Of a stretch of DNA of 64,000 nt, positions 4,876 through 57,185 are shown piece after piece. Below the pieces are notes generated by a model. That model was not told the DNA's origin, made no database searches, and saw nothing but the letters and a program-made list of their open reading frames with translations. The position numbers and the translations under genes are program-made. Within the stretch, counting starts at the first letter, position 1, and each line of letters opens with the position of its first letter. The DNA is from Candidatus Aenigmatarchaeota archaeon (GTDB lineage Archaea; Aenigmatarchaeota; Aenigmatarchaeia; GW2011-AR5). The DNA lies in NCBI GenBank assembly GCA_016187335.1, contig JACPJW010000001.1, positions 853,978 through 917,977 of the forward strand, written 5' to 3'.

Positions 4876-5973
4876 ATGGCATCACAGTTTGTAGAAAGAA
4901 AAGATTATTTAGTCGGAAAATTGCTGGATGGCAACAGAGTTTTATATGAATTTTTTGAAGTGGTGATTTCTAGAAAAAGTACTGACCCGTTTCAAGTAGC
5001 TGAAAATCTTATACGTCATTATAATCTTACTCCAAATCAACAGAAATATTTGCGCAGAATTGCTGACAGAACACAAAGAGCAAAAAGAGTTATTTCTTAT
5101 CTTGAAAAAAGATTTGGAATTAACAGAGAGGGATATTTCGATAATCCAGAAGAAGTTTATAGATTTATGCATAGTGGCAAAGAACCACCAAAGCCGGTTT
5201 TGAATGCAAAACCTTATTCTATAGCTGTTGGGTTTGAACATGTTGAATGGGTTTATCAAAATATATTAGGTTATGCCGGACGAGGAAGTGTGGATATTGA
5301 TTCTTTGGACTCAGATGAAAATCTTAGAAGAACTTTCAAAAGAGCAATTAAAGGCGATGATAGAAGTTTTGAAATGTTATCATTTTCTTATCGCACGCCA
5401 GAACAAAGACATAGAATTTTAGAACAAGAATTTCTAGATTATTTAGGAACAGATGAAAGTGCAGATGTCAAGGCACTAAAACATGGTGTTCGTCGTACTG
5501 TATTACATGAGATAAGACATGTTATAAATAGAATAATTTCACCAGAAAATTATTATTCAGAAGAAATAAGTGCTCGTTTATACGAAAGAGGTGGTGACCT
5601 TTTGAGTGTTTATACCGGATTTGACCAAGAAATTGAAAAGGCTAAAAAAATGGCAGAAAAACTTATAAATGAACATGAAATGAGATTGAAAAGACTGATT
5701 GAGCAAGGAGCACCACCTATTATTGTTGAAAGATCAAATAAGCGACTTCCCGAATTAAGAGAAAGGGGAAAGAAAGATGTAGAAGATATAACCAGTTGGG
5801 AAGATCTTACAAGGCAGATTTTAGGAAGTCTTAGATGGAATAGTACTTATAGAAGAGAACTTTCATACTTTTTCACTACAACGCCCCAAGAAAAAACAAG
5901 ACACAGACTGGAACTAATAAGAGATTATTTACCTAGAAGGATAAAACGAAAAGGCAAAAGTATTAAACATTAA
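4876..5973 (+). CDS. hypothetical protein with an HExxH zinc-metallopeptidase-like motif (AT-rich, likely foreign)
   Basis: 365 aa. HEIRH in TVLHEIRHVINRI plus a downstream Glu (SEEISARLYE) would fit a gluzincin-like arrangement. About 35 % GC versus 50-55 % in flanking ribosomal genes. Confidence 0.5.
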   Translation: MASQFVERKDYLVGKLLDGNRVLYEFFEVVISRKSTDPFQVAENLIRHYNLTPNQQKYLRRIADRTQRAKRVISYLEKRFGINREGYFDNPEEVYRFMHSGKEPPKPVLNAKPYSIAVGFEHVEWVYQNILGYAGRGSVDIDSLDSDENLRRTFKRAIKGDDRSFEMLSFSYRTPEQRHRILEQEFLDYLGTDESADVKALKHGVRRTVLHEIRHVINRIISPENYYSEEISARLYERGGDLLSVYTGFDQEIEKAKKMAEKLINEHEMRLKRLIEQGAPPIIVERSNKRLPELRERGKKDVEDITSWEDLTRQILGSLRWNSTYRRELSYFFTTTPQEKTRHRLELIRDYLPRRIKRKGKSIKH

Positions 5974-8110: not shown

Positions 8111-8428
8111 TTACCAGTGGCTGACTTTCTTGGACGATGACTTCATCTCAATGTCTTCCTCGACGTACCACAGCTCCTTGTGACGGTAAAGGAAAAAGCT
8201 TCCTACCATCAGGGAAGTTCCCGACACTACAAGGACCATTCCTTCCAGCGAGAACAGGGGGATGTTGTAAAGGTAGGAGAAAACGATGAAATGCGCGTCA
8301 AAAAGGTAAATTCCTGTGGACATGAAAATCCATATGTATTTGTATTTGTTGGAAAGCTGCGCGACGTACGAAAGGACAAAGGCCGATATAAGGTATTCAA
8401 TAAAGGCCACTATAATCGCTGTTGCCAT
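8111..8428 (-). CDS. hypothetical small membrane protein (AT-rich block)
   Basis: 105 aa with 3 hydrophobic segments and an aromatic-rich sequence. Confidence 0.4.
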   Translation of the reverse strand: MATAIIVAFIEYLISAFVLSYVAQLSNKYKYIWIFMSTGIYLFDAHFIVFSYLYNIPLFSLEGMVLVVSGTSLMVGSFFLYRHKELWYVEEDIEMKSSSKKVSHW

Positions 8429-8530: not shown

Positions 8531-8977
8531 GTGGATATCATGCCCAACGAAAAAGAGATACAGAAAAAATACATCCAGGCCCAGCTGCTCAAGCAGCAGA
8601 TAAACGCCATGATAGAGCAGAAAAGCGCTATAGATGAAAAGCTCGGCGAAATGGCCGTTTCCCTGGACGCCATAAGCAAGCTGGAAGAAATAAGGAAAGG
8701 CGAGGAGATATGGTCTTCCGTGGGCGGCGGCGTGTTCGTGAGGAGCGACATAAAGGACACTGAAAGCATCCTTGTGAGCGTCGGTGCCGGGGTTGTTGCC
8801 AAAAAATCGCGGCAAAGGGCCTCGGAAATCCTGAAAGAAAGGATGGTCGAGCTGAAAAAGGCGGATTTGCAGATAATGGAAGAAGTGACCAGCTATGCGC
8901 ACCAGATCGAGGAGCTGGAAGGGGAAATGGAATCCATGATGGAAGAGCAAGAAGGGAAAAAAAGCAGGAAGAAATGA
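8531..8977 (+). CDS. pfdA: prefoldin alpha subunit
   Basis: 148 aa coiled-coil protein with a central beta-hairpin segment (EEIWSSVGGGVFVRSDIKD). Lies in the conserved position between eif6 and ftsY. Confidence 0.75.
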   Translation: MDIMPNEKEIQKKYIQAQLLKQQINAMIEQKSAIDEKLGEMAVSLDAISKLEEIRKGEEIWSSVGGGVFVRSDIKDTESILVSVGAGVVAKKSRQRASEILKERMVELKKADLQIMEEVTSYAHQIEELEGEMESMMEEQEGKKSRKK

Positions 8978-9101: not shown

Positions 9102-10367
9102 ATGTTCGGCGCTTTGAAGAAAAAACTGCAGGAAGCAATAAGCAGGATTACGGGCAAGGAAAAGCCGGCTGAAGAGGAAAAGCCAAAGCCACAAGAAACG
9201 ACGGTGGAACCGAAACAGCCTGAAGTTCCTTCGAAACTTCCTTCTGCCCAAGATCTTCTTGAAGAGAAAACAGAAGGGAGAGAAGAGAAACCAGGGCAGC
9301 CGGAAGAAATCAAAAAGGAAGAGGCGAAGCCTTTTGTCTTGGAAAAAGAAGAAAAGCCGCTGATAAAAGAAGTTGACGAAATTCTTGAAGAAGAGAAGCT
9401 TCCTGTTACGGAAAAAGAGGAAAAAGAACGGCTGGGCAGGAGAGAAGAGCTGAAACCGGAGCCTGTTCTGGAAGAAGAAAAGCCCGGATTTTTTTCCGGT
9501 CTGCTGAGGAAAGTCACGAAGAAGGTAACGGAAAAAACGCTTGGCGGCGAGGAAATTGACAAGTTCCTGAAAGATTTGCAGTTAGCGCTGCTTGAAAACG
9601 ACGTTTCAATGGAAACAGCAGAACGGATATGCGAAGAAGTGAAGCAGCAGCTGAGCGGCAAAAGCGTGAGGCGCGGCGATGTTGAAAAGGAAATAAAGTC
9701 AGCGTTGCGCAGCGCCATGCTCGACGTGATGCAACAGCCTGAACTGGATTTGGAAAAAATGATAGAAGAAAAAGGCGGCAGCCCGCTGCTTGTGGTGTTC
9801 TTCGGCTTCAACGGCACCGGAAAAACTACAAGCATAGCAAAGCTTGCGCACAGGCTGAAGCAGTACAGGCCCGTGATTGCCGCAGGCGATACGTTCCGCG
9901 CGGCGAGCATCGAGCAGCTGGAGGAGCACGGCCGCAGGCTTGGCGTTGATGTTGTAAAGCACAAATACGGCGCTGACAGCGCTGCGGTGATTTTTGACGC
10001 CGTGAAGCATGCATCAGCAGTTGGCGGCAAAATAGTGCTGGCGGATACAGCCGGCCGCAGCCACAGCAACGTGAATTTGATGGACGAGCTGAAAAAAATA
10101 GTGCGGGTGAACAAGCCTGACCTGAAGGTCCTGATACTGGATTCCATAACCGGCAACGACATCTACGACCAGTCGGTGCTTTTTGAAAAAGCCGCGGGCG
10201 TTGACGCAATAATACTGACAAAAGCCGACGTCTACGAGAAAGGCGGGGCGGCGCTTTCAGCTACTCATACGCTGAAAAAGCCCGTGCTGTTCCTTGGCGT
10301 AGGGCAGGAATACGGTGATTTGAAGGAGTTCGAGCCCGAGGAGATCGTAAGGAATCTGCTGGAGTAG
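9102..10367 (+). CDS. ftsY: signal recognition particle receptor FtsY
   Basis: Glu/Lys-rich acidic N-domain, then an NG domain with G1 (GFNGTGKTTS), DTFRAAS, DTAGR and TKAD motifs. The likely start is Met 9102 (the track ORF begins at 9078). Confidence 0.9.
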   Translation: MFGALKKKLQEAISRITGKEKPAEEEKPKPQETTVEPKQPEVPSKLPSAQDLLEEKTEGREEKPGQPEEIKKEEAKPFVLEKEEKPLIKEVDEILEEEKLPVTEKEEKERLGRREELKPEPVLEEEKPGFFSGLLRKVTKKVTEKTLGGEEIDKFLKDLQLALLENDVSMETAERICEEVKQQLSGKSVRRGDVEKEIKSALRSAMLDVMQQPELDLEKMIEEKGGSPLLVVFFGFNGTGKTTSIAKLAHRLKQYRPVIAAGDTFRAASIEQLEEHGRRLGVDVVKHKYGADSAAVIFDAVKHASAVGGKIVLADTAGRSHSNVNLMDELKKIVRVNKPDLKVLILDSITGNDIYDQSVLFEKAAGVDAIILTKADVYEKGGAALSATHTLKKPVLFLGVGQEYGDLKEFEPEEIVRNLLE

Positions 10368-10777
10368 AAATCGAAATGGAAATTTTTGAGTTCTAAACCA
10401 AATAACTTATAAACTGGTTAGTCGATTCTCGAAATCAGAGGGTCAGTTCTACCGATACAAACAATATCTGATTCACCAGCACCTACATATGATGATTTTC
10501 CTAACCGCCACTTGAAATTTTTTACTGTATTTAGATTCACTTCAAAATCTGTGTTTCTAGGTCCTAGTCTTTTAATGTACAATTCCGATGTACCAAAGGG
10601 GTTTCTGTCCTTATTGCAGGGAAAGTATGAAAGAACCTTTTTCTGGGACGATCCGCTTGATCCTTAGTCATTTTGATGCACCTATGCAATTCTCTTTATT
10701 TGCTAATAAAATCCAACTTCTGGCCTCTCATGCACGCTTATCTTGAAAGAATATCGTGTGTTTTGATCGCTTCGCGT

Positions 10778-10924
10778 CTAGTTCCCGTTGTTCTCGCCCA
10801 CGAGCTTGCGGACAGCGTCCCTGACAGCTTCGCTGCGGTTCGGGTAGACGCCTTTCTTGACAAGAACGTCTATGTTCTTTATCTGCTTCTCCGTGAGCCT
10901 TATCTGGATTGTTTCCATGACCAT
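10778..10924 (-). CDS. ribbon-helix-helix (CopG/NikR-type) small DNA-binding protein (48 aa, not in ORF track)
   Basis: Manual reverse translation gives MVMETIQIRLTEKQIKNIDVLVKKGVYPNRSEAVRDAVRKLVGENNGN*. This is a classic RHH pattern (beta-strand IQIRL, helix, SRSEAVR helix). It lies 12 nt downstream of the 10937-11251 ORF on the same strand. Confidence 0.6.
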   Translation of the reverse strand: MVMETIQIRLTEKQIKNIDVLVKKGVYPNRSEAVRDAVRKLVGENNGN

Positions 10925-10936
10925 GATGATTTCACC

Positions 10937-11251
10937 TCATTTCAATTGAAGAGTTTTTGTCGTATCTTTACCAACATAAAAATCCGGTATTGAAGCCTCA
11001 TTTTGCGGTTCTCCGTCTGGAATACCAAAAACGCGATAATACCCTTCTTTAACTTTAGTTGTGACAAAGGGATCTTCGTCAAAAGCGTCCACTTCTAATG
11101 GAAGGCCGACACGGACACCATTTATCGTCATTATGCTAACTTTAACCGGATATCTGCCTTCACGGCTTCCTCTTCTTGCAATTACATTTTCAGGGTCCAA
11201 TCTTATTCTCAGATTGTATTTCGGCATTTCACCCATCAGACCACCTTCCAA
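10937..11251 (-). CDS. hypothetical protein, co-oriented immediately upstream of the RHH gene
   Basis: 104 aa ORF with no recognisable motif. Possible alternative start at internal Met (MPKYNL). Confidence 0.4.
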   Translation of the reverse strand: MEGGLMGEMPKYNLRIRLDPENVIARRGSREGRYPVKVSIMTINGVRVGLPLEVDAFDEDPFVTTKVKEGYYRVFGIPDGEPQNEASIPDFYVGKDTTKTLQLK

Positions 11252-11413
11252 ATGTGCGTGTAATGCATTACCTTCATAATGTAATTACTTTACAATAGTG
11301 ATTATAGTAATCTTTAAATACCTTACTACGGGGCGGTGACTATAAGCAGGAAACTGCTGCTTTACAATGAATTTGTTTCCGAGGATTTAATCTTTTTGCT
11401 TCATCTTGTTGTT

Positions 11414-12718
11414 ATGCTTTCAGGATTGTCGCAGAAGCTCAGGGACGCCATAGACAGGTTCTCCAGGGGCGGCGCGAACAGGGAGGAAGTGGATGAGCTG
11501 GTGAGGGAAATCCAGCGCTCCCTGATATCCGCGGACGTTGATGTCCAGCTTGTCCTGCAGCTGAGCGAGTCCATAAAGAAGCAGTCCTTTGAAAAGATGC
11601 CCGCAGGCCTGACAAGAAGGGAGCATGTTGTCCGCGTTGTCTACGAGGAACTGGCGGAAATAATGGGCAGAGAGAAGTCGGCTATCGCCCTAAAACCGAA
11701 AAAAATACTGCTTGCGGGGCTTTACGGCAGCGGAAAGACGACTACAGCCGCAAAGCTCGCGCGCTTTTACCAGAAAAAAGGGCTGAAAACAGCGCTGATA
11801 TGCTGCGATACGGTAAGGCCCGCGGCTTATGAGCAGCTGAAGCAGCTGGCGGAAAAAATAGACGCGGAATTCTACGGCGAGAAGGGCGAGAAGGATTCTG
11901 CTGCTGTTTTAAGAAACGCGCTGAAAAAAGTCCGCGGCGACGTGATCATTGTAGACTCATCAGGAAGAAACGCCCTTGACGGTTCTTTGATAGAAGAGAT
12001 AAAGGAAATTGATTCTTTGCTTAATCCCGACGAGCGCATTTTAGTGATACCAGCCGACATCGGCCAGGCGGCTAATGAGCAGGCGACGGCGTTTTCTAAT
12101 GCCCTTCACATCACGGACGTCATTGTCACAAAACTGGACGCGACGGCGAAAGGCGGCGGAGCGCTTACGGCTTGTTATCAGACGAGGGCGAAAGTGATTT
12201 TTGTCACCGTAGGCGAGACGCCTGAGGACCTTGAGCAGTACGACCCGAAAAAATTCGTCGCGCGGCTGCTGGGTTTCCCGGATTTAGAGGCGCTGCTGGA
12301 AAAAGCCAAGACCGCAGTTGATGAAGAAAAGGCGAAAAAAGTTGTCAGCGGGGATTTTACAATAGAGGAATTCTACGAGCAGATAGAGTCTGTGCAAAAA
12401 ATGGGCCCGCTGTCGCAGATAATGGACATGATGGGCCTCGGCAAGATGAGCGGAAAGGTTCCGGGCGGCGTTGATGTCCACGAGGCGAAGATGAAGAAAT
12501 GGGGGCACATCATAAAAAGCATGACAAGAGAGGAGAAATCCAGCCCGGACATCATCAATCCTTCGCGCGTGAGCAGGATAGCCAGGGGCAGCGGAACAAG
12601 CGAATCAGAAGTCCGCGAGCTGCTGTCAAACTACGGAAAAATAAAGAAGATGATGAAGAAGATGTCGCCATCAAAATTAAAAAGAAGCGGGCTGTTCAGG
12701 AAGTTCGGGCTGAGATAG
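11414..12718 (+). CDS. srp54: signal recognition particle protein SRP54
   Basis: N domain, then a G domain (GLYGSGKTTTAAKLA, DTVRPAAYEQL, DSSGR, TKLD) and a Met-rich M domain (MGPLSQIMDMMGLGKM). Start chosen at Met 11414 (track ORF 11336). Confidence 0.9.
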   Translation: MLSGLSQKLRDAIDRFSRGGANREEVDELVREIQRSLISADVDVQLVLQLSESIKKQSFEKMPAGLTRREHVVRVVYEELAEIMGREKSAIALKPKKILLAGLYGSGKTTTAAKLARFYQKKGLKTALICCDTVRPAAYEQLKQLAEKIDAEFYGEKGEKDSAAVLRNALKKVRGDVIIVDSSGRNALDGSLIEEIKEIDSLLNPDERILVIPADIGQAANEQATAFSNALHITDVIVTKLDATAKGGGALTACYQTRAKVIFVTVGETPEDLEQYDPKKFVARLLGFPDLEALLEKAKTAVDEEKAKKVVSGDFTIEEFYEQIESVQKMGPLSQIMDMMGLGKMSGKVPGGVDVHEAKMKKWGHIIKSMTREEKSSPDIINPSRVSRIARGSGTSESEVRELLSNYGKIKKMMKKMSPSKLKRSGLFRKFGLR

Positions 12719-45291: not shown

Positions 45292-46395
45292 ATGAGAAAT
45301 CTTAATCCTGACTTTGATATAAAAGGTTCGTCGCCGGCAATAAATGGGGTAAAATTGCTGATTGAAACGTATGCGCCATGGGATATTTCGGTCCTAATAA
45401 CAGGAGAGAAGGGAACCGGAAAAGAACTTGTTGCGCGCCAGATGCATAATAGGTCAGGACGAAAAGGCAATTTTGTTGCTCAGAATTGCGGCGGCGTACC
45501 AGAGGGTCTCGCGCCTACGCTTTTTTACGGCCATAGAAAAGGTGCATTTACAGATGCCAGGGATGACAAACCCGGGCTATTCTTGCTCGCTGAAAACGGC
45601 ACGTTGTTTCTTGACGAAGCCGAAGCCATGCCTCTGTCAATTCAACCGGTATTACTAAGGCCGCTTGATGGTTACGGCATCAGGCCGATAGGCAGCACTG
45701 CAGAAATTTATCCTAATTTTCGTGTTGTTGCAGCCACAAATCAAGAGCTTACACCAGACGGTTTCAGGAGCGACCTTCTTGACCGGCTTGATGGTTTCAG
45801 AATTCATATGCCGCCGCTGCGCGAGATACGAGAGGATATCCCAGAGATAGTAGAATTTTACTTGGAACAGATGAGGCGTAATTACGGTAGGAGAAAACAA
45901 TTTACAAGTGACGCGCTTTCCTTGTTGAAAAATCATGACTTTCCCGGAAACACGCGCCAGCTTATAAATGTTGTAAAATACGCTTATTTTGGCTCGAATA
46001 TGCACGATTTTATAGGAGCCGACCTGGTAGAACGGAGGCTATTTGGGAAAACAGCTGTAGAAGTTCCTGAAAAAGATGCGCCAGCTTATGAACCCGGAAG
46101 AGTTGTACCTGTTACCGGCAACGGTGAAGTCCGGGATAGAATTGCTGCCATACAAAATCCGCGCGAAAGAGAAATAGTTGAGGCGCTTTTAAGGCATGGC
46201 GGAAGAATGAGAGATGTCGCAGCAGAAATGCATATTACGTATCAAGGATTGTACGGAAGAATAAGAGCCTTAGGTTATCCAGGAACGGAAGAATTATATG
46301 TAAAGCATGAAATACCGAATTACAGGACTAGAACATCCAAGGCTCCTCCAGGTGTGCGGGTTGAAGTGCGGCAAAGAAGCAGCCATGTTATGTAG
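45292..46395 (+). CDS. sigma54-interaction-domain AAA+ transcriptional activator (PspF-like bEBP lacking a sensor domain) with a C-terminal Fis-type HTH
   Basis: Walker A GEKGTGKE, GAFTGA-like loop KGAFTDA, Walker B LFLDEAEAM, R-finger RVVAATNQ, and the FRSDLLDRL...PPLREIREDI block. C-terminal HTH IVEALLRHGGRMRDVAAEMHITYQGLYGRI. Confidence 0.75.
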   Translation: MRNLNPDFDIKGSSPAINGVKLLIETYAPWDISVLITGEKGTGKELVARQMHNRSGRKGNFVAQNCGGVPEGLAPTLFYGHRKGAFTDARDDKPGLFLLAENGTLFLDEAEAMPLSIQPVLLRPLDGYGIRPIGSTAEIYPNFRVVAATNQELTPDGFRSDLLDRLDGFRIHMPPLREIREDIPEIVEFYLEQMRRNYGRRKQFTSDALSLLKNHDFPGNTRQLINVVKYAYFGSNMHDFIGADLVERRLFGKTAVEVPEKDAPAYEPGRVVPVTGNGEVRDRIAAIQNPREREIVEALLRHGGRMRDVAAEMHITYQGLYGRIRALGYPGTEELYVKHEIPNYRTRTSKAPPGVRVEVRQRSSHVM

Positions 46396-46425: not shown

Positions 46426-47559
46426 TTATATACCGTGTTCTATGCCGTAAAGAATGGCTTCGGCCCTGCTGTGAACGCCTAATTTCTTGAAAAGAGTGCC
46501 AGCATGCGTTTCAACTGTTTTAACTTGTAATCCCATCCTTTTTGCGATCTGCCTATATGTATTTGCCTCGCCGCTGGCCAGAACGCGCAGCACTTCCTTT
46601 TCACGTCGTGTAAGAGGTTCAGGCGGGGAGTAATCATGTCCGGTGACTTGGTCCTGCCGGGATTCAAATCCATGAAAACTGCCGTTCCTTAAGAGTTCGC
46701 GGAACCTGGCGTAAACGATAAGTTGCGCTTTTTTTTCAAGACCCAGCTTTTCCATAATATGTGAAACATGTGCTTCAGCCGTCTTCACCGACATGCAAAG
46801 GCTGCCGGCAATCTCCTTGTTTCCGGTGCATACACCCTCCCCGATAAGCTTCAGGATTCTTTGCTCCATTGGGGCAAGTTTCAAAGTATTGTATTTAACG
46901 CCTTCGGGATGCCCGCGGAAATCTGCGTCTTCAGGCCTTCTGTAGACGTAGCCTATCCCGCCAACATTCATGATGTAGGGGGTTTCGGCGTCTCCGGTTT
47001 TCAAGTTAAGCGACCGGACCATTGAATCAACATCAATTTCATTCAAATGACCGTTTCCTGCTGCGTGGCTTAGTTCCTTGGGCGTCATGACAGTGCCGGA
47101 TGCCGCCAGCGCGTGCAGCAGCGACAGCTCCGGGCGCGACATTTCTCTGCGCCTGCCGCCAATCACCGCGTAATCCTCGGTCATCGTAATTTGCGAGTCT
47201 CTGTACACTATCCTTGGTTCTGCCATGTGCTTGAGCCTGTCCTGCTCAAACTTGATCCTTTCAACGTCAATCCGCATGCATACCCTCTCTCCATCTATCG
47301 GACTGATGTATCCTTGCGTCATAGCATCGTTCAAATAACTCCAAAATGTCCTGGCATCCATCCCCATATTCCTGCATTTAGCCCAAAGGGAATCTTCATA
47401 AAATATTCCGGTCTCCTGATTGGTGCTTTCAAGGGCTGCAAGAACAAGCTGCGCAAAACCGCTCATAGGGCGGTGATGCTGTTTGTTGTTTTGTCTCCTA
47501 TAGCTGAAATCATTTACTCCTGTCTGGTAAGTAATTTTTGCTCTTTTTCCTGAAGCCAT
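46426..47559 (-). CDS. transcriptional regulator with two LuxR/GerE-type HTH domains
   Basis: Two segments matching the LuxR-type HTH signature (MEQRILKLIGEGVCTGNKEIAGSLCMSVKTAEAHVSHIMEKLG and TRREKEVLRVLASGEANTYRQIAKRMGLQVKTVETHAGTLFKKLG). Confidence 0.6.
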   Translation of the reverse strand: MASGKRAKITYQTGVNDFSYRRQNNKQHHRPMSGFAQLVLAALESTNQETGIFYEDSLWAKCRNMGMDARTFWSYLNDAMTQGYISPIDGERVCMRIDVERIKFEQDRLKHMAEPRIVYRDSQITMTEDYAVIGGRRREMSRPELSLLHALAASGTVMTPKELSHAAGNGHLNEIDVDSMVRSLNLKTGDAETPYIMNVGGIGYVYRRPEDADFRGHPEGVKYNTLKLAPMEQRILKLIGEGVCTGNKEIAGSLCMSVKTAEAHVSHIMEKLGLEKKAQLIVYARFRELLRNGSFHGFESRQDQVTGHDYSPPEPLTRREKEVLRVLASGEANTYRQIAKRMGLQVKTVETHAGTLFKKLGVHSRAEAILYGIEHGI

Positions 47560-49727: not shown

Positions 49728-49747
49728 GAAATAATATGTTCTTTGCT

Positions 49748-49844
49748 CAGAAAGCAAAGCTTTCTGGCAACTCAAGAAGCTTATGCTTCTTCGAGTTTTC
49801 CGTAGACGATTTTCGTTTTGATGCAACTTTTCTGAAAAGTTGCA
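49748..49844. repeat. hairpin cluster between convergent transporter and mscL genes: two A-type and one B-type
   Basis: cagaaagc-aaa-gctttctg (49748-49766), aagaagc-ttat-gcttctt (49774-49791), and tgcaactttt-ctg-aaaagttgca (49822-49844). A T-rich tract (tctatttcttttcatcttt) follows. Confidence 0.55.
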
Positions 49845-49850
49845 AAGGGT

Positions 49851-50147
49851 CTATTTCTTTTCATCTTTCGCGACCTTCTTCACGATAATGAAGACCACAA
49901 GCGCGATAATCAGGAAGTTTATCACTGCCGCAAGGAACGCGCCCCATCCGATGACAACAGGCCCTATGGACAGCTTTGCGGTCTGCCACTCCCCGCCGGG
50001 AATGAAAAAAGTTATCACGGGCATGATTACGTTGCTTACCAATGACTGCACCAGCGCCGTCAGGGCAAGCCCTATGATGAACGCCACTGCCAGTCCTACG
50101 ACTTTGTATTCCTGCAAAAATTCGCTGAACTCCTGCGCAAAGCCCAT
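49851..50147 (-). CDS. mscL: large-conductance mechanosensitive channel
   Basis: 98 aa. VVGLAVAFIIGLALTALVQSLVSNVIMPVI is the MscL TM1 signature, and the C-terminus is charged. Confidence 0.8.
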   Translation of the reverse strand: MGFAQEFSEFLQEYKVVGLAVAFIIGLALTALVQSLVSNVIMPVITFFIPGGEWQTAKLSIGPVVIGWGAFLAAVINFLIIALVVFIIVKKVAKDEKK

Positions 50148-50493
50148 AAAAATCCTTATCCACCCAAGAAGCAGGAAGAAGACCTAAATTCTCATAGGAG
50201 GCGAAAGGTTCTTAATGGTTTCAAGGCATCAGAACAGCGCGTCAACCTTCACTCCGTGCTCTGTTAAATCATCTGTTGCAAAAACAGGCGTTAAACTTCT
50301 GTTGCTGGACTTTTTCTCTGGATGGCGGTCTGAACGAATAAGCGAACTTATATAGCCCTTACTCTGTCGTCTTTTGTGATTGGTTAAATGATTGCGGTAA
50401 ATTATTGAATATCACTTTTGGCTGTTCTTGTTGTTTTCTTGCTGTTGAGGGAAGGGCTTTTAAAGTTAAGTTTGAAAAAATAAAATATAAGAA

Positions 50494-50781
50494 GTGTCTA
50501 AAATGGAACAGAAAGAAAAAGACAATATAATTAAAGAAATAAAAAAAAGAGCACCTCATCCTTCATGCCCTATTTGTGGCAATAAGCAATTTTCTTTGGC
50601 AGATGGCTATCATAACAAAAACCTGCAAGATAAATTATCTGGCGGAATCATTTTTGGTGGCAAAGCTATACCAACTGTTTGTGCAATATGTAGTAATTGC
50701 GGTTATATTGCAGAATTAGCCGTTGGTATTCTTGGATTTTTACCAAAAAGTGAGGGAAATGAAGATGAAAAACAAAAGTAA
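50494..50781 (+). CDS. small zinc-ribbon protein (AT-rich block)
   Basis: CPICGN ... CAICSNCG gives a four-Cys ribbon. About 30 % GC. Confidence 0.4.
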   Translation: MSKMEQKEKDNIIKEIKKRAPHPSCPICGNKQFSLADGYHNKNLQDKLSGGIIFGGKAIPTVCAICSNCGYIAELAVGILGFLPKSEGNEDEKQK

Positions 50782-51133
50782 AAAGCCGGCGATAAGCGAT
50801 ACCCCACTTAAAGTATATGATGTCGCAAAGAATGAAGGTTTATTTCGTATAACAGAAAACCAATTAGCTTCGGTATTACGTAAATCTCATGAAACAAAAA
50901 GTTATAAAGAAAGTTTTTTCTTTTCATTAAGTATCGTAATAGGAATTAGTCTTGTATTTGGAACAACTAATTTTATAGATGCTTTAGGTGTTCCATCAAC
51001 TTCTTGGCAAGCGGTTTTTATAATACTTTTTGGATTGGCTTTTTTATGTATTTGTTATTTTGGTTATAAGTGGTATACCAATAGATGTTCAGTAGATGAA
51101 ACCATAGAAAAACTAAAGGAAAATAAAATATAA
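50759..51133 (+). CDS. small membrane protein (AT-rich block)
   Basis: Two TM segments after a basic N-terminus. Overlaps the upstream zinc-ribbon ORF by 23 nt. Start at Met 50759 (TTG 50723 is also possible). Confidence 0.35.
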   Translation: MKMKNKSKKPAISDTPLKVYDVAKNEGLFRITENQLASVLRKSHETKSYKESFFFSLSIVIGISLVFGTTNFIDALGVPSTSWQAVFIILFGLAFLCICYFGYKWYTNRCSVDETIEKLKENKI

Positions 51134-51182
51134 CAATAGGATTTTAACAAGAGATGAATTTCACTGAAAAACAACAGTTCGT

Positions 51183-51923
51183 TTAACAGAGCATCACTCC
51201 GCTTTCCTTGAAAACTGCAGCCAGCTCGTCCCTGGTTCTTTCATAAAACTCCTTGCCCAGCTGCAGCTTATGCTTTTCCGCTATGCTTTTCCACAGCTGC
51301 GGGTAATTCAGCTTGTCTATGAACGCGCTGTCTATATTCGGCGAGACCGCGTTTCCTACTGCTGAAGCGTCCATCGGCAGCATCGGCCCTATGAACGCAT
51401 AAGTCCGCAGCCCTGCATCCTTGAGCTTTTTCAGCGTTTCTATCCTGACCCTGAAAGGCGGCGTGAACGGCTCAAAAATATTTTTTATTTTGTCGTTGTC
51501 CGTGGTGATGCTCACGCCGACGGTGCATTCCCTGAACTGCTGAAGCAGGTCAATATCGCGCATGACCAGAGGGGAACGTGTAAGGATAGTTATCGGAAAA
51601 TCATGCTTCAGCAGGATTTCCAGGCACTTCCTTGTCAGCTCGTATTTCTTTTCAAACGGCTGGTAAGGATCAGTAACGGAAGAAAGCATTACAACGCCCT
51701 TTTCTGCTTTCTTTATTTCCCTTTCCAGAAGCTCCGGTGCGTTCACCTTTACATCCAGATATCCGCCCCATTCCTCGTTGGGATGGAACTTGCGGATAAG
51801 CAGCTGCGCGTAGCAGTAAGTGCAGCCGAAGCCGCAGCCCATGTAGCAGTTCACGCAGTAATCCGTGATTCCGCTTTTGCTGAGGATGCTTCTAGCCTGA
51901 ACTTCGCGGATTTTCAGCGGCAT
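51183..51923 (-). CDS. radical SAM protein of the SplB-like (DNA repair photolyase) family
   Basis: CVNCYMGCGFGCTYCYA Cys cluster near the N-terminus. 246 aa. Confidence 0.65.
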   Translation of the reverse strand: MPLKIREVQARSILSKSGITDYCVNCYMGCGFGCTYCYAQLLIRKFHPNEEWGGYLDVKVNAPELLEREIKKAEKGVVMLSSVTDPYQPFEKKYELTRKCLEILLKHDFPITILTRSPLVMRDIDLLQQFRECTVGVSITTDNDKIKNIFEPFTPPFRVRIETLKKLKDAGLRTYAFIGPMLPMDASAVGNAVSPNIDSAFIDKLNYPQLWKSIAEKHKLQLGKEFYERTRDELAAVFKESGVMLC

Positions 51924-52714: not shown

Positions 52715-52906
52715 GCGTCTGTAGTCTAAACAACTTTTCTTGGAAAGAAAAATTGTATCAAAAGAATCCAAGAAAGTTGGGATAACGGTTAGGACCTCAG
52801 CCTTCCATGAAAGGCTGTCAGAAGAAAATTTTAGAAAGAAGTTTTTGACCAAACTTTTTTCTAAAAAGTTTGGCTGATGATCCGGGTTCGAATCCCGGCG
52901 GACGCA
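52715..52906 (+). tRNA. tRNA-Gly(UCC) with two introns (D-loop intron and canonical 37/38 intron)
   Basis: Acceptor GCGTCTG/CGGACGC, TA, D-stem GTCT (52724-52727) pairing GGAC (52792-52795), and D-loop AAAC[intron about 52732-52785]CGGTTA. C26, anticodon stem TCAGC (52797-52801), loop C-T-TCC-A (52802-52807), intron 52808-52871, G38, stem GCTGA (52873-52877), variable TGAT, T-arm CCGGG-TTCGAAT-CCCGG, discriminator A. Matches the archaeal tRNA-Gly pattern GTAGTCTA..GGTTAGGAC...CTTCCA. Confidence 0.75.
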
Positions 52907-52912
52907 TTATTT
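52892..52912. repeat. 21-nt direct repeat copy 1 (tRNA-Gly 3' end, attL-like)
   Basis: atcccggcggacgcattattt, identical to 54430-54450. Confidence 0.7.
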
Positions 52913-52915
52913 GAA

Positions 52916-53209
52916 TTAAAGTTCGATGTGAAGAACCCTTTTGATGAATTCTTTCATTTCCTGCGACTTTGTAGAATTCAGTGACACATGCAATCCGTAG
53001 GAAGTCGGCTTTTTTATTATGAAGCCTTCTCTTGCCAGCTCGTCGGCAAGCCTGCCTATTCTCTTGTGCCCTGACTTTCCCAGATGCTGCGGCTTGAATC
53101 CTTTTGAAATATTCTCGAAATCAGTATGCCTTCCGTGAAAATATCCGTGCTTTGCAAGCTTGTACAAAATCCATGCCTTCAACTCCTCATCGCTTTTTTC
53201 TTGTCTCAT
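52916..53209 (-). CDS. hypothetical small protein (possible winged-helix) inside cassette 1
   Basis: 97 aa basic ORF. No confident family. Confidence 0.35.
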   Translation of the reverse strand: MRQEKSDEELKAWILYKLAKHGYFHGRHTDFENISKGFKPQHLGKSGHKRIGRLADELAREGFIIKKPTSYGLHVSLNSTKSQEMKEFIKRVLHIEL

Positions 53210-53262
53210 ATGCTTTACATCTAAAATAAAGCTTTTAATACTTTAATTCTCTATATTTTTGT

Positions 53263-53580
53263 ATGGAAACATTGCTGAAATCCTTGAGGCCGAACATAAC
53301 GGACCTGATAAACCCTTCGGTCAGAAAAGTCCTTGAATTTCTGGTTGAAAACAGGGGGTTTGATTACTCGAAAGAAGAAATAGCCGGAGGCTCGGGTATA
53401 TCGCGCCCCACATTATACAGGATATGGCCAATGCTGGAAAGGAACGGGCTGCTTCAGGCAACGAGGAAATACGGGAAAACGCAGCTTTACAAGATAAACG
53501 AAAGCAGCGAGCTAGTCAAGCTCCTGATAAAGCTGGAGATAGCCGCGGTGAAGGAGCAGTTCAAGCGGATGGAAAGATAA
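53263..53580 (+). CDS. winged-helix transcriptional regulator (MarR/ArsR-like) inside cassette 1
   Basis: VRKVLEFLVENRGFDYSKEEIAGGSGISRPTLYRIWPMLERNGLL is a wHTH. Confidence 0.5.
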   Translation: METLLKSLRPNITDLINPSVRKVLEFLVENRGFDYSKEEIAGGSGISRPTLYRIWPMLERNGLLQATRKYGKTQLYKINESSELVKLLIKLEIAAVKEQFKRMER

Positions 53581-53656
53581 CATGAAGGGCAGATGCAGAT
53601 TTATTATGATGAAGAGGGCGGGAAATAAAGAGAAAGGTTTAGTTCTTGAGATTCTG

Positions 53657-53668
53657 GGCGGACGCATT
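53657..53668. repeat. 12-nt partial copy of the tRNA-Gly 3'-end repeat (internal att-like remnant)
   Basis: ggcggacgcatt, identical to the core of the 21-nt repeat. Confidence 0.45.
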
Positions 53669-53707
53669 GATTAATGGCAATTATAAGACTTTGCCTAAAA
53701 TTCAACT

Positions 53708-54376
53708 TTAGCTAGTAAAACTGCGCCATCTAATTGTTCCTTTTTTTGTAACTTCCCATATGCCGCTTTCAGTTACACTTTCTACCTCAAAATCATATTT
53801 TTCTACAACTTCTCTAATTTGCGGGTCAAATTCTGGCGGAACGTAAATTGTTCCGCGATTTCGGTAATGACTAAGGTCGTTTGATCTCACCCCAATCCCC
53901 ATTTCTTTAAGTGTTCCGTTTATATGTCTCCAAAATTCTTCCTTCTCTCGGTTTCGGTAAGGTTTTGGTTTTAATTTATATCCTGAAAGAGGCTGTACCA
54001 GTTCGACGTTGGAAGGGCCTTCAAGTCTGTCTATTGTATCTTCTTTTGGATGTTTATTGATATCCGGGGCGTTGTAAAATGGTTCTACCATATCTACAAG
54101 AATAGGCGATCCGTATTGAATCCAAGGCGGAACAAGTACGTATCCTTTGCTTGGCGAATCTGATCTCGGAACCAAGTACAAATGACCTGGTGATGCTAGA
54201 TGAAATCTTTTAGATGAAGAAATTAAACCACCAATCTCTTCTTGATCAACTCTAGAAAGCCTGTTTCCAGATAATCTGTTGAGTTCATCATCAAGCTGAT
54301 CTCGAGAGGAGGCGAATTGATTATAAACCCTAACAACATCTTGAGAGGAAGGTATCATAGCCACACAACTTTTCAC
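53708..54376 (-). CDS. hypothetical protein inside cassette 2
   Basis: 222 aa ORF. No recognisable motif. Confidence 0.4.
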   Translation of the reverse strand: MKSCVAMIPSSQDVVRVYNQFASSRDQLDDELNRLSGNRLSRVDQEEIGGLISSSKRFHLASPGHLYLVPRSDSPSKGYVLVPPWIQYGSPILVDMVEPFYNAPDINKHPKEDTIDRLEGPSNVELVQPLSGYKLKPKPYRNREKEEFWRHINGTLKEMGIGVRSNDLSHYRNRGTIYVPPEFDPQIREVVEKYDFEVESVTESGIWEVTKKGTIRWRSFTS

Positions 54377-54429
54377 TACTTTATAGTAATATATATTTAA
54401 AGATATCGCCTTATCGCCCGCCTTCCTTT

Positions 54430-54450
54430 ATCCCGGCGGACGCATTATTT
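54430..54450. repeat. 21-nt direct repeat copy 2 (attR-like)
   Basis: atcccggcggacgcattattt. It provides the stop codon of the 54445-55653 gene. Confidence 0.7.
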
Positions 54451-55653
54451 TCTTCCGTGCCGTGCTTCGGCTTTTTCATACCAGGGCATTATAAGCGATG
54501 CCTCCACGGAGCTTCTTGCATAGACCTTCCTGGCGGAATCAAGATATTCCAAGGTTCCTAAATGAAATTTGCGTCGTGGCTTTCTGAGATGCCTGATAAC
54601 CGCCCCCCTGCTTGCGGGGAGATTATGCGTGGCTGCCGTCATTGCCGCCACAAATATTTCTCTTTCCCTCTCGTCCAGGCTCTCTATAGCTTTTCTCGCA
54701 TCGTCAATCAGCCCGTATCTTCCCAGATCAAACACCATGCGCCTCCAGTTGGCGTAGCTGAACAGCATAGCGGAGTTCGCATGGTCCTGCAGGCTTTTCA
54801 AATTTAGTGCAGACTCCGGTACCCTTTTCGCTTCGGGAAGGAACTGGTTCATGGCAGCCACATCTTCCATGGCATATTTTGTCATCTGGAAAGGGCTGAT
54901 GCTGACGAAAGGATCGGCCCTGGCAGGGTAGAACGTCAGGAATTGTATTCCAGCTTCCTTCAGAAGCCTGTCGAGATACCATGCCTTGAGCGCGGCGTTT
55001 ATCCATTCACGTCTTCCGTTCCTGAATGCTACGCGGGGGAGCATTTCAGTAATGTTATAGCCGATAATGACATCGGGGTTTGTGCTATTCACTACGGCGT
55101 CCATGAAGGGCCGTGCATTGTCGCCGTAAGTTCGCCTCCTGTCCTCGTGAAGCTCTTTAAGAAGTTCTATTGCCTTGGCAGCTTCGTTTTGCTTATACTG
55201 CTTCAATGAATAGCGGGCTCCTTTTCTTGTTTCTGCAACGGCCTTTTCCCTGAATCTTTGGAGAAGTTCTTTCTGCCTTTGGTAACCGGGCCTTGAAAAT
55301 TCGCGCCGTCTTAATTTTTCATCCCACATTGCCCTCATTGCGCGCTCGAAATCAATCTTTTCTCCGTGTCTTGACACTCCGAGGGGCAATGCAAAATCTC
55401 CATCGGTTTCAAGGCGTATAATGCGTTGATCAACGGCCTGCTGGAGTGTAAGAGGATAAAGCTCGCGCGCAACGCCCCATGCCGACGGCGCATCGAAAGT
55501 GTACACTTCATCAAACAGCCTGCCAGTCATCATGTTCTGGGGCTTTTTGTAAGATATTCTTTCCGCCGGCCTGCAACCGGAAAAATAGAAAGCTGCAGCA
55601 CTAGCTAATGCAAGATGTATAAGTTCTCTTCTAGTGGGATTTCCATAGACCAT
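54445..55653 (-). CDS. hypothetical lipoprotein-like protein
   Basis: N-terminal hydrophobic leader ending AAFYFSGC (lipobox-like Cys). 402 aa helical protein. No family recognised. Confidence 0.4.
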   Translation of the reverse strand: MVYGNPTRRELIHLALASAAAFYFSGCRPAERISYKKPQNMMTGRLFDEVYTFDAPSAWGVARELYPLTLQQAVDQRIIRLETDGDFALPLGVSRHGEKIDFERAMRAMWDEKLRRREFSRPGYQRQKELLQRFREKAVAETRKGARYSLKQYKQNEAAKAIELLKELHEDRRRTYGDNARPFMDAVVNSTNPDVIIGYNITEMLPRVAFRNGRREWINAALKAWYLDRLLKEAGIQFLTFYPARADPFVSISPFQMTKYAMEDVAAMNQFLPEAKRVPESALNLKSLQDHANSAMLFSYANWRRMVFDLGRYGLIDDARKAIESLDEREREIFVAAMTAATHNLPASRGAVIRHLRKPRRKFHLGTLEYLDSARKVYARSSVEASLIMPWYEKAEARHGRK

Positions 55654-55718
55654 AAAATACTTTCACAAGAAAGCTTTAAATTTTCACTACTTTGAAGTGA
55701 AACTTTGTTTTCTTCCCT

Positions 55719-57185
55719 CTACCTCGGCTTGTAGTTGTACCGGGGCTCGGATAATTTTCTTCCATGGCCGTGGTAATGGAACCATCCCAGAATGAGCACG
55801 ATTATGATTACGGCTATTAATATAGCTATTCCGTAGTCGGCAACAGCCTTTGGAACTTTTATGCCGGCTATTTCGCCTTGTTCCTGCGGCTGCTCAACCT
55901 GCTGTTGCCCTGCGCCCGGCTCGGCGCTTGCTGCAGGCTGCGCGGTTATCGCGAACACGCTGAAGCCCGGCGTCGCTGCAGTGTACTTTACGGAAGCTGT
56001 TTCTTCGCTCAGCAGCGTTGTTGGAAGCTCATTCCATCCTCCCGCATACCTGCTGAGCTTCACGGAATTCCTGTCCTTGTCCGCGAGCCATGTCTTGTTG
56101 ACGGAAAAAGTGATTGACGCTGATTTTATGTCGCTGTCAGAAATATTGATTGTTTTTATGTCAAGATACTTGTAAACGCCCTGCGGCGGCGCGGGCACGC
56201 TGGGCGCTGTAACCTCCTTGACAGTTATGGAAACATCCTTGACCGCGTTCACAACATCTATCAGAATGCTGCTCACGGCGGTTTTCGTGAACGTGACTGT
56301 TGATGCAACGCCCGGGCTTATCTGGCTTATTGTTTTCGTTTCCGAAACCTCTGTGGTTGTGACAGAGCCGCCGCCGCCTCCACCCCCTCCAGAACTGGAG
56401 CTGCTTGATGGCGAACCGCTGGAACTGCTCCCTGTGCCGCTGAACGTCACCGTCGCGCTTTTTGATTTTGTTGTAGTCACTGATGAAGAAGTTCCCGATG
56501 CCGTTACCGTGTTCGTGCAGTCAGCGCCTCCCTGGACAATGCGCCACGTTCTTGTGGCTTCCGTATTATGCGACAATGCCCCTACGCTCTTGGCGGCAGT
56601 ATGACCAGAAGAAAGCGAGCATCCGCCTGCGCCGCCCCATGTCATTGTAACATCTCCAAGGTCGCCGCCTGCTATGGTTGTTGCCGTCACGTCAAACTCG
56701 GCGCCCTGCGCGGCTGAAGCGACTGATGCCGATGCCGTCAGTGATTTTATGGTTATTACGTTTATGTTTGTGTTCGTCACGAACGTGTCCGCTGTGTTGT
56801 CAATCTGCACCGACTGGAACTTGTTCGTGGCTCCGGGACTCACGGCCTTTATGCCTGAGAAGGTTGCCGTTGTGCTTCCGCCCGCGGTTATGCTCGTTGA
56901 AAAGCTAGTTCCTGTGTAAGACGTCTGCTCCGCCCAGCTGCCGCTGACAAGAAGCGATACTGTGCTTATGCTTGCGGAATTCTGCGTGTCTTCGTTCTTC
57001 AATGATACCTGGCATGAGAACGCCGCGCCGTTCTCCACTACAACCGTGCCCGACTGGCCGTTGCACGTGAACGTCTCGACGCTCACCGCGGCAAAGGCGG
57101 GAGCAATCAGAGCGGAAAGGAAAACCATCAAGGCTGCCAAAAGCGTCATTTTGCCCGGTCCGAATTTTTTTTTCATTCCTTTCAC
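55719..57185 (-). CDS. cell-surface protein with C-terminal TM anchor
   Basis: Signal peptide, Thr/Ser-rich beta-domain, poly-Ser/Gly linker (SSSSSSGGGGGGGGS), Gln/Pro-rich stalk, a C-terminal TM (IAILIAVIIIVLILGWF), and a basic tail. Confidence 0.55.
   Translation of the reverse strand: MKGMKKKFGPGKMTLLAALMVFLSALIAPAFAAVSVETFTCNGQSGTVVVENGAAFSCQVSLKNEDTQNSASISTVSLLVSGSWAEQTSYTGTSFSTSITAGGSTTATFSGIKAVSPGATNKFQSVQIDNTADTFVTNTNINVITIKSLTASASVASAAQGAEFDVTATTIAGGDLGDVTMTWGGAGGCSLSSGHTAAKSVGALSHNTEATRTWRIVQGGADCTNTVTASGTSSSVTTTKSKSATVTFSGTGSSSSGSPSSSSSSGGGGGGGGSVTTTEVSETKTISQISPGVASTVTFTKTAVSSILIDVVNAVKDVSITVKEVTAPSVPAPPQGVYKYLDIKTINISDSDIKSASITFSVNKTWLADKDRNSVKLSRYAGGWNELPTTLLSEETASVKYTAATPGFSVFAITAQPAASAEPGAGQQQVEQPQEQGEIAGIKVPKAVADYGIAILIAVIIIVLILGWFHYHGHGRKLSEPRYNYKPR

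Follow-up and report, generated by a model that had tools for sequence, protein, structure and literature searches.

Integration scars at tRNA genes are routine in bacteria and in well-studied archaea, where SSV, pNOB8 and TKV-type elements are examples of elements marked by tRNA fragments. To our knowledge, integrated mobile DNA is much less documented in DPANN archaea such as the Aenigmarchaeota. Here, we describe a locus in a 64-kb stretch of the genome of a Candidatus Aenigmatarchaeota archaeon (assembly GCA_016187335.1, contig JACPJW010000001.1, positions 853,978 to 917,977; hereafter "the window"), in which a tRNA-Gly(UCC) gene is followed by three small modules of strain-specific DNA and by partial copies of its own 3' end. 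The best explanation is that this Aenigmarchaeota lineage has a hotspot for site-specific integration in the interval between this tRNA gene and a convergent gene for a PGF-pre-PGF surface protein (hereafter PGF). The locus would be a new instance of a well-known process in a poorly charted archaeal lineage, and its unusual features are the miniature modules without integrase and a target tRNA gene that is interrupted twice.

Cis-mobilizable elements (CIMEs) and their tandem accretion at tRNA and other attachment (att) sites have been reviewed for the ICESt1-type elements of Streptococcus (PMC5704250). Like the modules described here, CIMEs are integrase-less segments with att-type direct repeats, arranged head-to-tail behind the target gene, and the same model would apply, in which integration is followed by decay and by a new integration at the reconstituted site. 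The present locus differs in its archaeal (DPANN) host, in the far smaller size of its segments (0.7-1.3 kb) and in having no known functional partner element or integrase. In addition, one of its repeats is degraded, and one module has only a 9-nt repeat that is not derived from the tRNA.

The ssrA islands of Dehalococcoides are also tandem, with direct repeats of ~20 bp from the 3' end of the gene, and 15 of them have no integration module (PMC3146451). There, as here, several tandem units lie downstream of a single-copy tRNA-like gene, insertion occurs in or near the T-loop, the content is strain-specific and the host genome is small and streamlined. In contrast, the Dehalococcoides islands are several kilobases or larger and many carry the serine-recombinase module DsiB, whereas the present locus has no module with a recombinase, and its target is the intron-containing tRNA-Gly of an archaeon. 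For archaea, a survey of the Thermococcaceae has described partial tRNA genes that integration left behind (PMC9897764). A partial copy of the tRNA 3' end marks the distal end of the integrated DNA in both cases, but the Thermococcaceae elements encode an integrase and span ~9-23 kb.

In Prochlorococcus, tRNA islands consist of stacked elements built by tycheposons (bioRxiv 10.1101/2020.12.28.424599). These islands resemble our locus in that successive integrations at one tRNA shift older elements outward, in their partial tRNAs and degenerate remnants, and in their streamlined host; however, tycheposons carry tyrosine recombinases and replication modules, and neither was seen here. Archaeal integrons (PMC9668308) likewise array units of one or two genes in uniform orientation at a single site. 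Unlike integrons, the locus described here has no IntI or attC hairpins that we could find, its repeat directly copies the end of the tRNA, and each ORF (open reading frame) appears to have its own upstream region instead of a shared Pc promoter.

Copies of the tRNA-Gly 3' end behind the gene

The locus was first noticed because the end of a tRNA-Gly gene appeared to be repeated downstream, with a shorter core copy in between, and a pattern search of the window found the repeats at exactly the positions given in that original prediction. The 21-mer ATCCCGGCGGACGCATTATTT is present in two exact copies (att copies 1 and 3; 0 expected), and no further site with up to three mismatches was detected in the window (0 in 100 shuffles). 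It consists of the last 15 nt of the tRNA (52892-52906) and 6 nt of 3' flank. Between the two 21-mers, the 12-mer GGCGGACGCATT occurs exactly for a third time, within a degraded middle copy (att copy 2) that is identical at 16 of 19 positions and continues with weaker similarity toward the T-loop. The coordinates of these and all other features are collected in Table 1. The 21-mer has only these two sites in 64 kb and none in the GTDB representative genomes.

This arrangement, with the tRNA in the proximal position and a direct repeat of its 3' part in the distal one, is that of a tRNA-targeted element. Repeats are retained on both sides of the DNA comprising modules A and B, and no recombinase was found there, as is the case for CIMEs. 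Because copy 2 is degraded, modules A and B may singly no longer be competent for recombination.

A stretch of the PGF gene was considered as a fourth att copy (55735-55766, identical to the copy 3 region at 24 of 32 positions) and rejected; it is conserved C-terminal coding sequence of PGF, and the corresponding sequence of a close relative is less att-like. When extended by eye, the resemblance covers 55735-55775 and 54428-54467 (copy 3 and its flank) with ~31 of 41 positions identical, and the PGF and 402-aa ORFs both read ...HGRK there. The resemblance could be due to chance, gene conversion or an ancient scar.

The same locus carries different cargo in a close relative

To the left of the tRNA, the window encodes a matrixin-like metalloprotease and a radical-SAM protein; PGF and a 1973-aa giant surface protein are encoded to the right of the modules. 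A Logan contig from a close relative (L015), whose protease and PGF are 86% and 85% identical to those of the window, keeps the order response regulator, giant protein, PGF, variable block, tRNA-Gly, protease, radical SAM and MgtE. Nucleotide homology between the two runs from the protease gene through the 5' half of the tRNA, breaks off at the anticodon (52807) and is seen again from 55718, the base that follows the PGF stop codon. The variable block of the window (52808-55717) is therefore 2.9 kb long, and it contains the three modules, A, B and C.

Between the same flanks, the L015 contig has 1.6 kb of DNA with ORFs of 357 and 101 aa, which are unrelated to the window cargo; module A and the 402-aa ORF of module C are not present. 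This difference in cargo was seen in one comparator. The contig also has a displaced tRNA end of the window type, ATCCCGGCGGACGCA, at 8235-8249, only 6 nt from the PGF stop codon. Its own tRNA-Gly gene (9813-9933, minus strand), with a D-loop intron only, lies 1.6 kb from this displaced old end. The displaced L015 copy and copy 3 of the window have the same left boundary, TATCCCGG, and are thus consistent with orthology. Because L015 keeps the flanks, has other cargo and carries its own displaced tRNA end, the interval appears to be a recurrently used integration hotspot, and the view that the repeats are duplications of the tRNA-Gly 3' end of the kind that integration produces is supported. 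The proposal that the element might be larger and extend into the surface-protein genes holds in part. The variable region does pass 54450 and reaches 55717, but L015 has conserved, syntenic counterparts of PGF (488 aa) and of the 1973-aa giant, which are therefore not parts of the element.

The two tRNA genes themselves diverge unevenly, with five changes among the 34 nt of the 3' half and a single change in the 5' half. The 3' changes include two compensatory T-stem pairs and a G-U to A-U replacement in the acceptor stem. The altered 3' half of the L015 tRNA could reflect replacement by element-derived DNA. The tRNA is not found beside the other matrixin homologs (45-67% identity; L016-L018 and L037-L042) or beside the PGF homologs from JGI metagenomes (55-58% identity; L019-L021).

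Small ORFs, mostly of atypical composition, make up the cargo

The ORFs next to the tRNA were recovered as originally described (97, 105 and 222 aa, the last being 216 aa from an ATG start). The 105-aa product, which had been taken for a winged-helix regulator, has weak, sub-threshold matches to helix-turn-helix (HTH) and winged HTH families only, and the 97-aa product matches no HTH or other family. For the 216-aa ORF of module B, no match was obtained in Pfam, PHROG, NCBIfam, PADLOC, PDB, phages or plasmids, and a full HMMER scan of 1.8 billion proteins yielded only three weak partial matches, all without a Pfam domain. Across the cargo, Pfam, PHROGs, NCBIfam, PADLOC, PDB (sequence and profile searches) and tblastn or blastn comparisons with phages and plasmids yielded only the weak HTH matches. 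The structures predicted for the 216-aa and 402-aa products have pLDDT (predicted local distance difference test) values of 44 and 33, too low for use. At NCBI, the cassette proteins are annotated as hypothetical proteins from a Candidatus Aenigmarchaeota metagenome-assembled genome, encoded on a contig of 918 kb, and identical proteins are found in 7-9 assemblies, always in the same context.

The G+C content (GC) at third codon positions (GC3) is 0.28 for the 216-aa ORF, 0.50 for the 97-aa ORF, 0.52 for the 402-aa ORF and 0.62 for the 105-aa ORF, compared to 0.60-0.71 for five flanking genes. Three of the cargo ORFs are thus atypical for the host and the 105-aa ORF is not. Module B is atypical in composition, and the remaining modules are only mildly so.

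Every module, including that of L015, has one ORF that is convergent with the tRNA. Three of these ORFs stop 3-39 nt from the tRNA-proximal repeat or the tRNA end, the 97-aa ORF stopping 3 nt before copy 1, and the 402-aa ORF stops inside a repeat. An exact 13-mer, AAAGTAGTGAAAA (minus strand), precedes the 216-aa ORF as well as the 402-aa ORF (54370-54382 and 55681-55693) and is found nowhere else in the window; it may represent a shared operator or terminator.

Module C differs from its neighbors in that it lies between two copies of the 9-nt sequence TTTTCTTCC, which has four plus-strand copies in 64 kb, three of them within this locus. Conceptual deletion of the 402-aa segment between these repeats creates a junction that aligns with the att-to-PGF junction of L015. 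Because the deletion restores an L015-like junction, module C has the appearance of a later arrival, inserted just beyond the old tRNA end.

The 402-aa ORF matched no protein family, and its only homolog, which is 33% identical, lies on a contig of bacterial type (L009, 3677-4813). The two proteins have the motifs LTLQQAVD, YLDRLLKEAG and PFQMT in common. Neighbors of the homolog are genes for LptC, IGPD and SPOR/DPBB proteins, and the presence of LptC, IGPD and SPOR-domain genes indicates that the contig is from a Gram-negative bacterium. Judged from this similarity, the 402-aa lipoprotein-like ORF is a candidate for cross-domain transfer. Its C-terminus aligns with the end of the homolog, relative to which it is full length. 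As originally noted, its stop codon (54445-54447) lies inside the downstream 21-mer, 6 nt into copy 3. The suggestion that the insertion had remodelled the end of a host gene does not hold, however, since the two proteins have a common end point, so that no host gene was truncated by the att copy; the ORF instead belongs to a strain-specific block, is absent from L015 and has its single homolog on a bacterial contig.

Origin of the modules

We consider it probable that the repeats, the tRNA, the strain-specific cargo, the composition of module B and the lack of a detectable integrase in the window reflect a stack of decayed, CIME-like scars, left by successive site-specific integrations into the region from the T-loop to the 3' end of tRNA-Gly. 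We infer that the modules are now immobile, and we propose the following mechanism and sequence of events. Circular elements with an attP mimicking the T-loop-to-3'-end part of the tRNA would have recombined with the tRNA gene. Each integration would have rebuilt the tRNA end from element DNA and shifted the previous end outward, such that displaced 3' ends were left in series, namely copy 3 (exact) and copy 2 (decayed). Three foreign modules (0.74, 0.76 and 1.25 kb) would remain, each comprising one or two ORFs with an upstream region of its own and lacking a recombinase, as the equivalent of bacterial CIMEs formed through tandem accretion. The outermost module, with the 402-aa gene, would have entered slightly downstream of the tRNA end, by a crossover at the 9-nt sequence that now flanks it. 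That the cargo consists of ORFans, or in one case of an ORF with a single homolog in a bacterial contig, is counted in favor of this explanation.

Several observations weigh against integration and decay. No ORF in 52913-57185 matched a recombinase (Pfam, PHROGs, NCBIfam, PADLOC), nor did any of 28 further window ORFs of at least 200 aa, and no integrase fragment was recognizable in this set; the absence of an integrase had been noted originally. The cargo ORFs have no viral or plasmid relatives (PHROGs, IMG/VR, INPHARED phages, PLSDB plasmids). Beyond the absence of the 21-mer from GTDB representative genomes, 19- and 20-mers gave no useful match in IMG/VR. Comparison of the orthologous locus, a check proposed with the original prediction, revealed a difference in content, but an empty site was not seen, only an alternatively occupied one, and L015 is the single syntenic comparator genome. 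On its PGF side, module C has no tRNA-derived repeat, only the 9-nt repeat. Neither a 15-nt displaced copy nor a crossover in a 15-nt core simply explains the altered T-stem of L015. Finally, all four modules (three in the window and one in L015) are no longer than 1.6 kb, and the independent decay of four larger elements to one or two genes, although possible in a deletion-prone genome of ~0.9 Mb, is not parsimonious.

The uniformity of the modules raises the possibility that they are live cassettes without integrase, which a recombinase acting in trans, from the genome, a virus or a plasmid, excises and re-inserts at the tRNA-Gly end. The locus would then be an integron- or satellite-like capture platform in which the tRNA 3' end is the equivalent of attI. 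All four modules are indeed 0.74-1.6 kb long, with one or two ORFs and no recombinase, and in each, one ORF converges on the tRNA and stops 3-39 nt from a repeat or the tRNA end, or inside a repeat. Over all 21 nt, 6 of them in the flank outside the tRNA, the outer repeats have stayed identical, the cargo has turned over since the window and L015 strains split, and the upstream regions of modules B and C have the exact 13-mer in common. However, no recombinase is found among the window ORFs that were scanned, copy 2 is degraded, one side of module C has no tRNA-derived repeat, and the identical proteins occur in one context only, in 7-9 assemblies. Contig ends in Logan gave no sign of excision or of circular junctions. 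The integron-like array that had been offered as one option also found no support: no IntI-type tyrosine recombinase is encoded by the block ORFs or the 28 scanned window ORFs, and only two inverted repeats are present in 52880-55760, neither of them attC-like or located at an att copy. Mobilization in trans, the leading alternative, is unlikely, and it is a shade more doubtful that the tRNA-Gly 3' end is the docking site of a DPANN gene-cassette system in which recombinase-free promoter-plus-ORF units of 0.7-1.6 kb are taken up, stacked and exchanged by a recombinase in trans. If true, such a docking site would be a functional integron analogue on a tRNA att site, and would explain why the four modules of the two strains are tiny, uniformly oriented, end in repeats and have been turned over since strain divergence. 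An SSV-type history can also be considered, but SSV integration splits the int gene across att, whereas no ORF here reads through any att copy, which argues against a split integrase of this type.

Three further explanations are less likely still. A single integration of one 1.5-kb element (52913-54450) between the 21-mers, with the middle copy and the 402-aa segment arising independently through local events (illegitimate recombination or microhomology-mediated insertion, for example), would be in keeping with the fact that only the outer pair of repeats is exact, the middle copy having a 12-nt core, and that the 9-nt repeat of module C is not derived from the tRNA. Yet the chance of an exact 12-mer from the tRNA end in 1.5 kb is ~2e-4 (our estimate, 2 strands x 1500 / 4^12), the similarity of the middle copy reaches 16 of 19 positions and runs weakly on into the T-loop, and module A (GC3 of 0.50-0.62) differs from module B (0.28), all of which makes this scenario very unlikely. 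A non-mobile origin, in which the repeats are relics of tandem tRNA duplication or of slippage during replication, or else a terminator or regulatory motif that the neighboring genes have in common, is conceivable inasmuch as the 21-mer includes the T-rich terminator of the tRNA and ORFs end at or near each copy, as they might at a shared 3'-end signal. We regard it as highly improbable, since the copies lack 5' tRNA parts, the motif is found nowhere else in 64 kb, and the intervening DNA is compositionally foreign and has been swapped for unrelated genes in L015. Chimeric joining at the repeated tRNA sequence is almost certainly not the explanation. Several Logan contigs do break within the T-arm, at 52881 and 52902, but an independent contig of 10.2 kb (L001) crosses the whole block at 100% identity, and the arrangement is therefore not a mis-assembly. 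Three other contigs (L004, L023 and L024) cover the block outward from copy 1, and a fourth (L025) runs from the tRNA into module B. The breaks fall in T-arm sequence that is conserved across many organisms, and the one aberrant contig end, the divergent end of L005, is Nextera adapter; for the same reasons, the contig ends were rejected as a sign of heterogeneity in the population.

As a stack of integration scars, the locus represents a concrete strain-variable hotspot with defined junctions, and a possible route by which a symbiont genome of ~0.9 Mb gains ORFans and at least one gene whose only homolog is bacterial. It is also a test case for whether very small modules without integrase are debris or are mobilized in trans.

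Table 1. Features of the tRNA-Gly(UCC) locus, with positions in the window.
Feature	Coordinates	Strand	Description
Matrixin-like metalloprotease gene, 221 aa	51985-52650	minus	Conserved left boundary of the hotspot
tRNA-Gly(UCC) gene	52715-52906	plus	Two interruptions; spliced form called by ARAGORN
Exon 1	52715-52729	plus	
D-loop intron (position 15/16), 56 nt	52730-52785	plus	HBh'-type motif
Exon 2	52786-52807/8	plus	
Anticodon-loop insertion, 64 nt	52808/9-52871/2	plus	No bulge-helix-bulge (BHB) motif
Exon 3	52872/3-52906	plus	
att copy 1	52892-52912	plus	Exact 21-mer; last 15 nt of tRNA and 6 nt of T-rich flank; attL-like, functional tRNA part
Module A	52913-53649		737 bp, GC 0.43; two divergently transcribed ORFs
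97-aa ORF (module A)	52916-53209	minus	
105-aa HTH-like ORF (module A)	53263-53580	plus	
att copy 2	53650-53668	plus	Degraded, 16/19; exact 12-nt core at 53657-53668
Module B	53669-54429		761 bp, GC 0.385
216-aa ORFan (module B)	53708-54358	minus	ATG start; 222 aa from GTG at 54376
att copy 3	54430-54450	plus	Exact 21-mer; displaced tRNA 3' end; holds the stop codon of the 402-aa ORF
402-aa ORF	54445-55653	minus	Signal-peptide-like N-terminus with lipobox (FSGC)
9-nt direct repeat TTTTCTTCC, left	54448-54456	plus	
Module C	54457-55707	minus	1251 bp; 402-aa ORF
11-bp hairpin	55678-55706		Between PGF stop codon and start of the 402-aa ORF; includes the module C 13-mer
9-nt direct repeat TTTTCTTCC, right	55708-55716	plus	Directly before homology to L015 resumes at 55718
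PGF-pre-PGF surface-protein gene, 488 aa	55719-57185	minus	Conserved right boundary; TIGR04213, E = 1.5e-23

The target tRNA gene is interrupted twice

ARAGORN called no tRNA anywhere in the 64-kb window, and Rfam detected none at gathering or relaxed thresholds. Both programs miss tRNA-Gly because two insertions interrupt the gene. When the D-loop intron and the 64-nt block in the anticodon loop were removed in silico, ARAGORN called a canonical tRNA-Gly(UCC) cloverleaf, and the exons correspond almost base for base to intron-free tRNA-Gly(UCC) genes of other archaea, in agreement with the initial assignment as tRNA-Gly. The stretch 52715-52907 folds much more stably than shuffled sequences (z = -6.5). 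Automated searches for att sites and islands would overlook loci of this kind in DPANN archaea if they take tRNA calls as their starting point, since the target is invisible to ARAGORN and Rfam. Across the whole 64 kb, Rfam reported 0 families at threshold, a hint that RNA genes of this genome may systematically escape detection when they are disrupted or divergent.

Non-canonical D-loop introns and disrupted tRNA genes have been documented for DPANN and other archaea (PMC5829648). The D-loop intron found here has a relaxed HBh'-type motif with an H helix (GUCU/GGAU), 3-nt bulges AAA and AAC, and an inner helix of 8 bp. The intron of L015 has the same architecture, and its inner helix differs yet stays complementary, an instance of covariation. 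The 64-nt anticodon-loop block is not present in the L015 ortholog. Manual inspection, constrained folding and exhaustive enumeration of motifs all failed to reveal a BHB-like motif in this block from which the required junctions would result. The block contains copies of both anticodon-stem strands (GGCUG and UCAG) and a 16-bp hairpin.

A 123-kb viral contig in IMG/VR (UViG_3300020577_012633; L043) carries a tRNA-like gene at 643-790 on the minus strand. This gene begins with the same 11 nt as tRNA-Gly and agrees with it in 28 of 30 aligned nt at its 3' end (by eye); a pattern search found 20 nt exact. The unusual U6-G67 pair is also found in both. The middle of the viral gene is long and unrecognizable, and ARAGORN does not call it. 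The 20-mer match was considered as a candidate attP and rejected, because it lies in a full-length tRNA-like gene.

Other variable segments and unusual genes

Strain-specific DNA is also seen elsewhere near the locus. In the window, a low-GC (0.38) block of 1.5 kb at 49728-51224 is strain-specific and encodes MscL, a zinc-ribbon ORF and a membrane ORF. In L015, the protease gene is separated from the radical-SAM gene by a BglII-type restriction-modification pair (10663-12316). In a more distant relative (L020), an ORF of 200 aa is found just downstream of the PGF homolog, between perfect 15-nt inverted repeats (AAGGGGAACTCGCTA and TAGCGAGTTCCCCTT, at 8937-8951 and 9614-9628). The long non-coding flanks of this ORF look alike by eye, and a repeat finder gave no direct repeat there.

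Further from the tRNA, two genes of the window encode regulators of bacterial type in this archaeal genome, a protein with a sigma-54-interaction AAA+ domain (45292-46395) and a LuxR/GerE-family protein (46426-47559). A 365-aa ORF without a Pfam match (4876-5973) lies in the kilobase with the lowest GC of the window (0.33), and this region may be another foreign insert.

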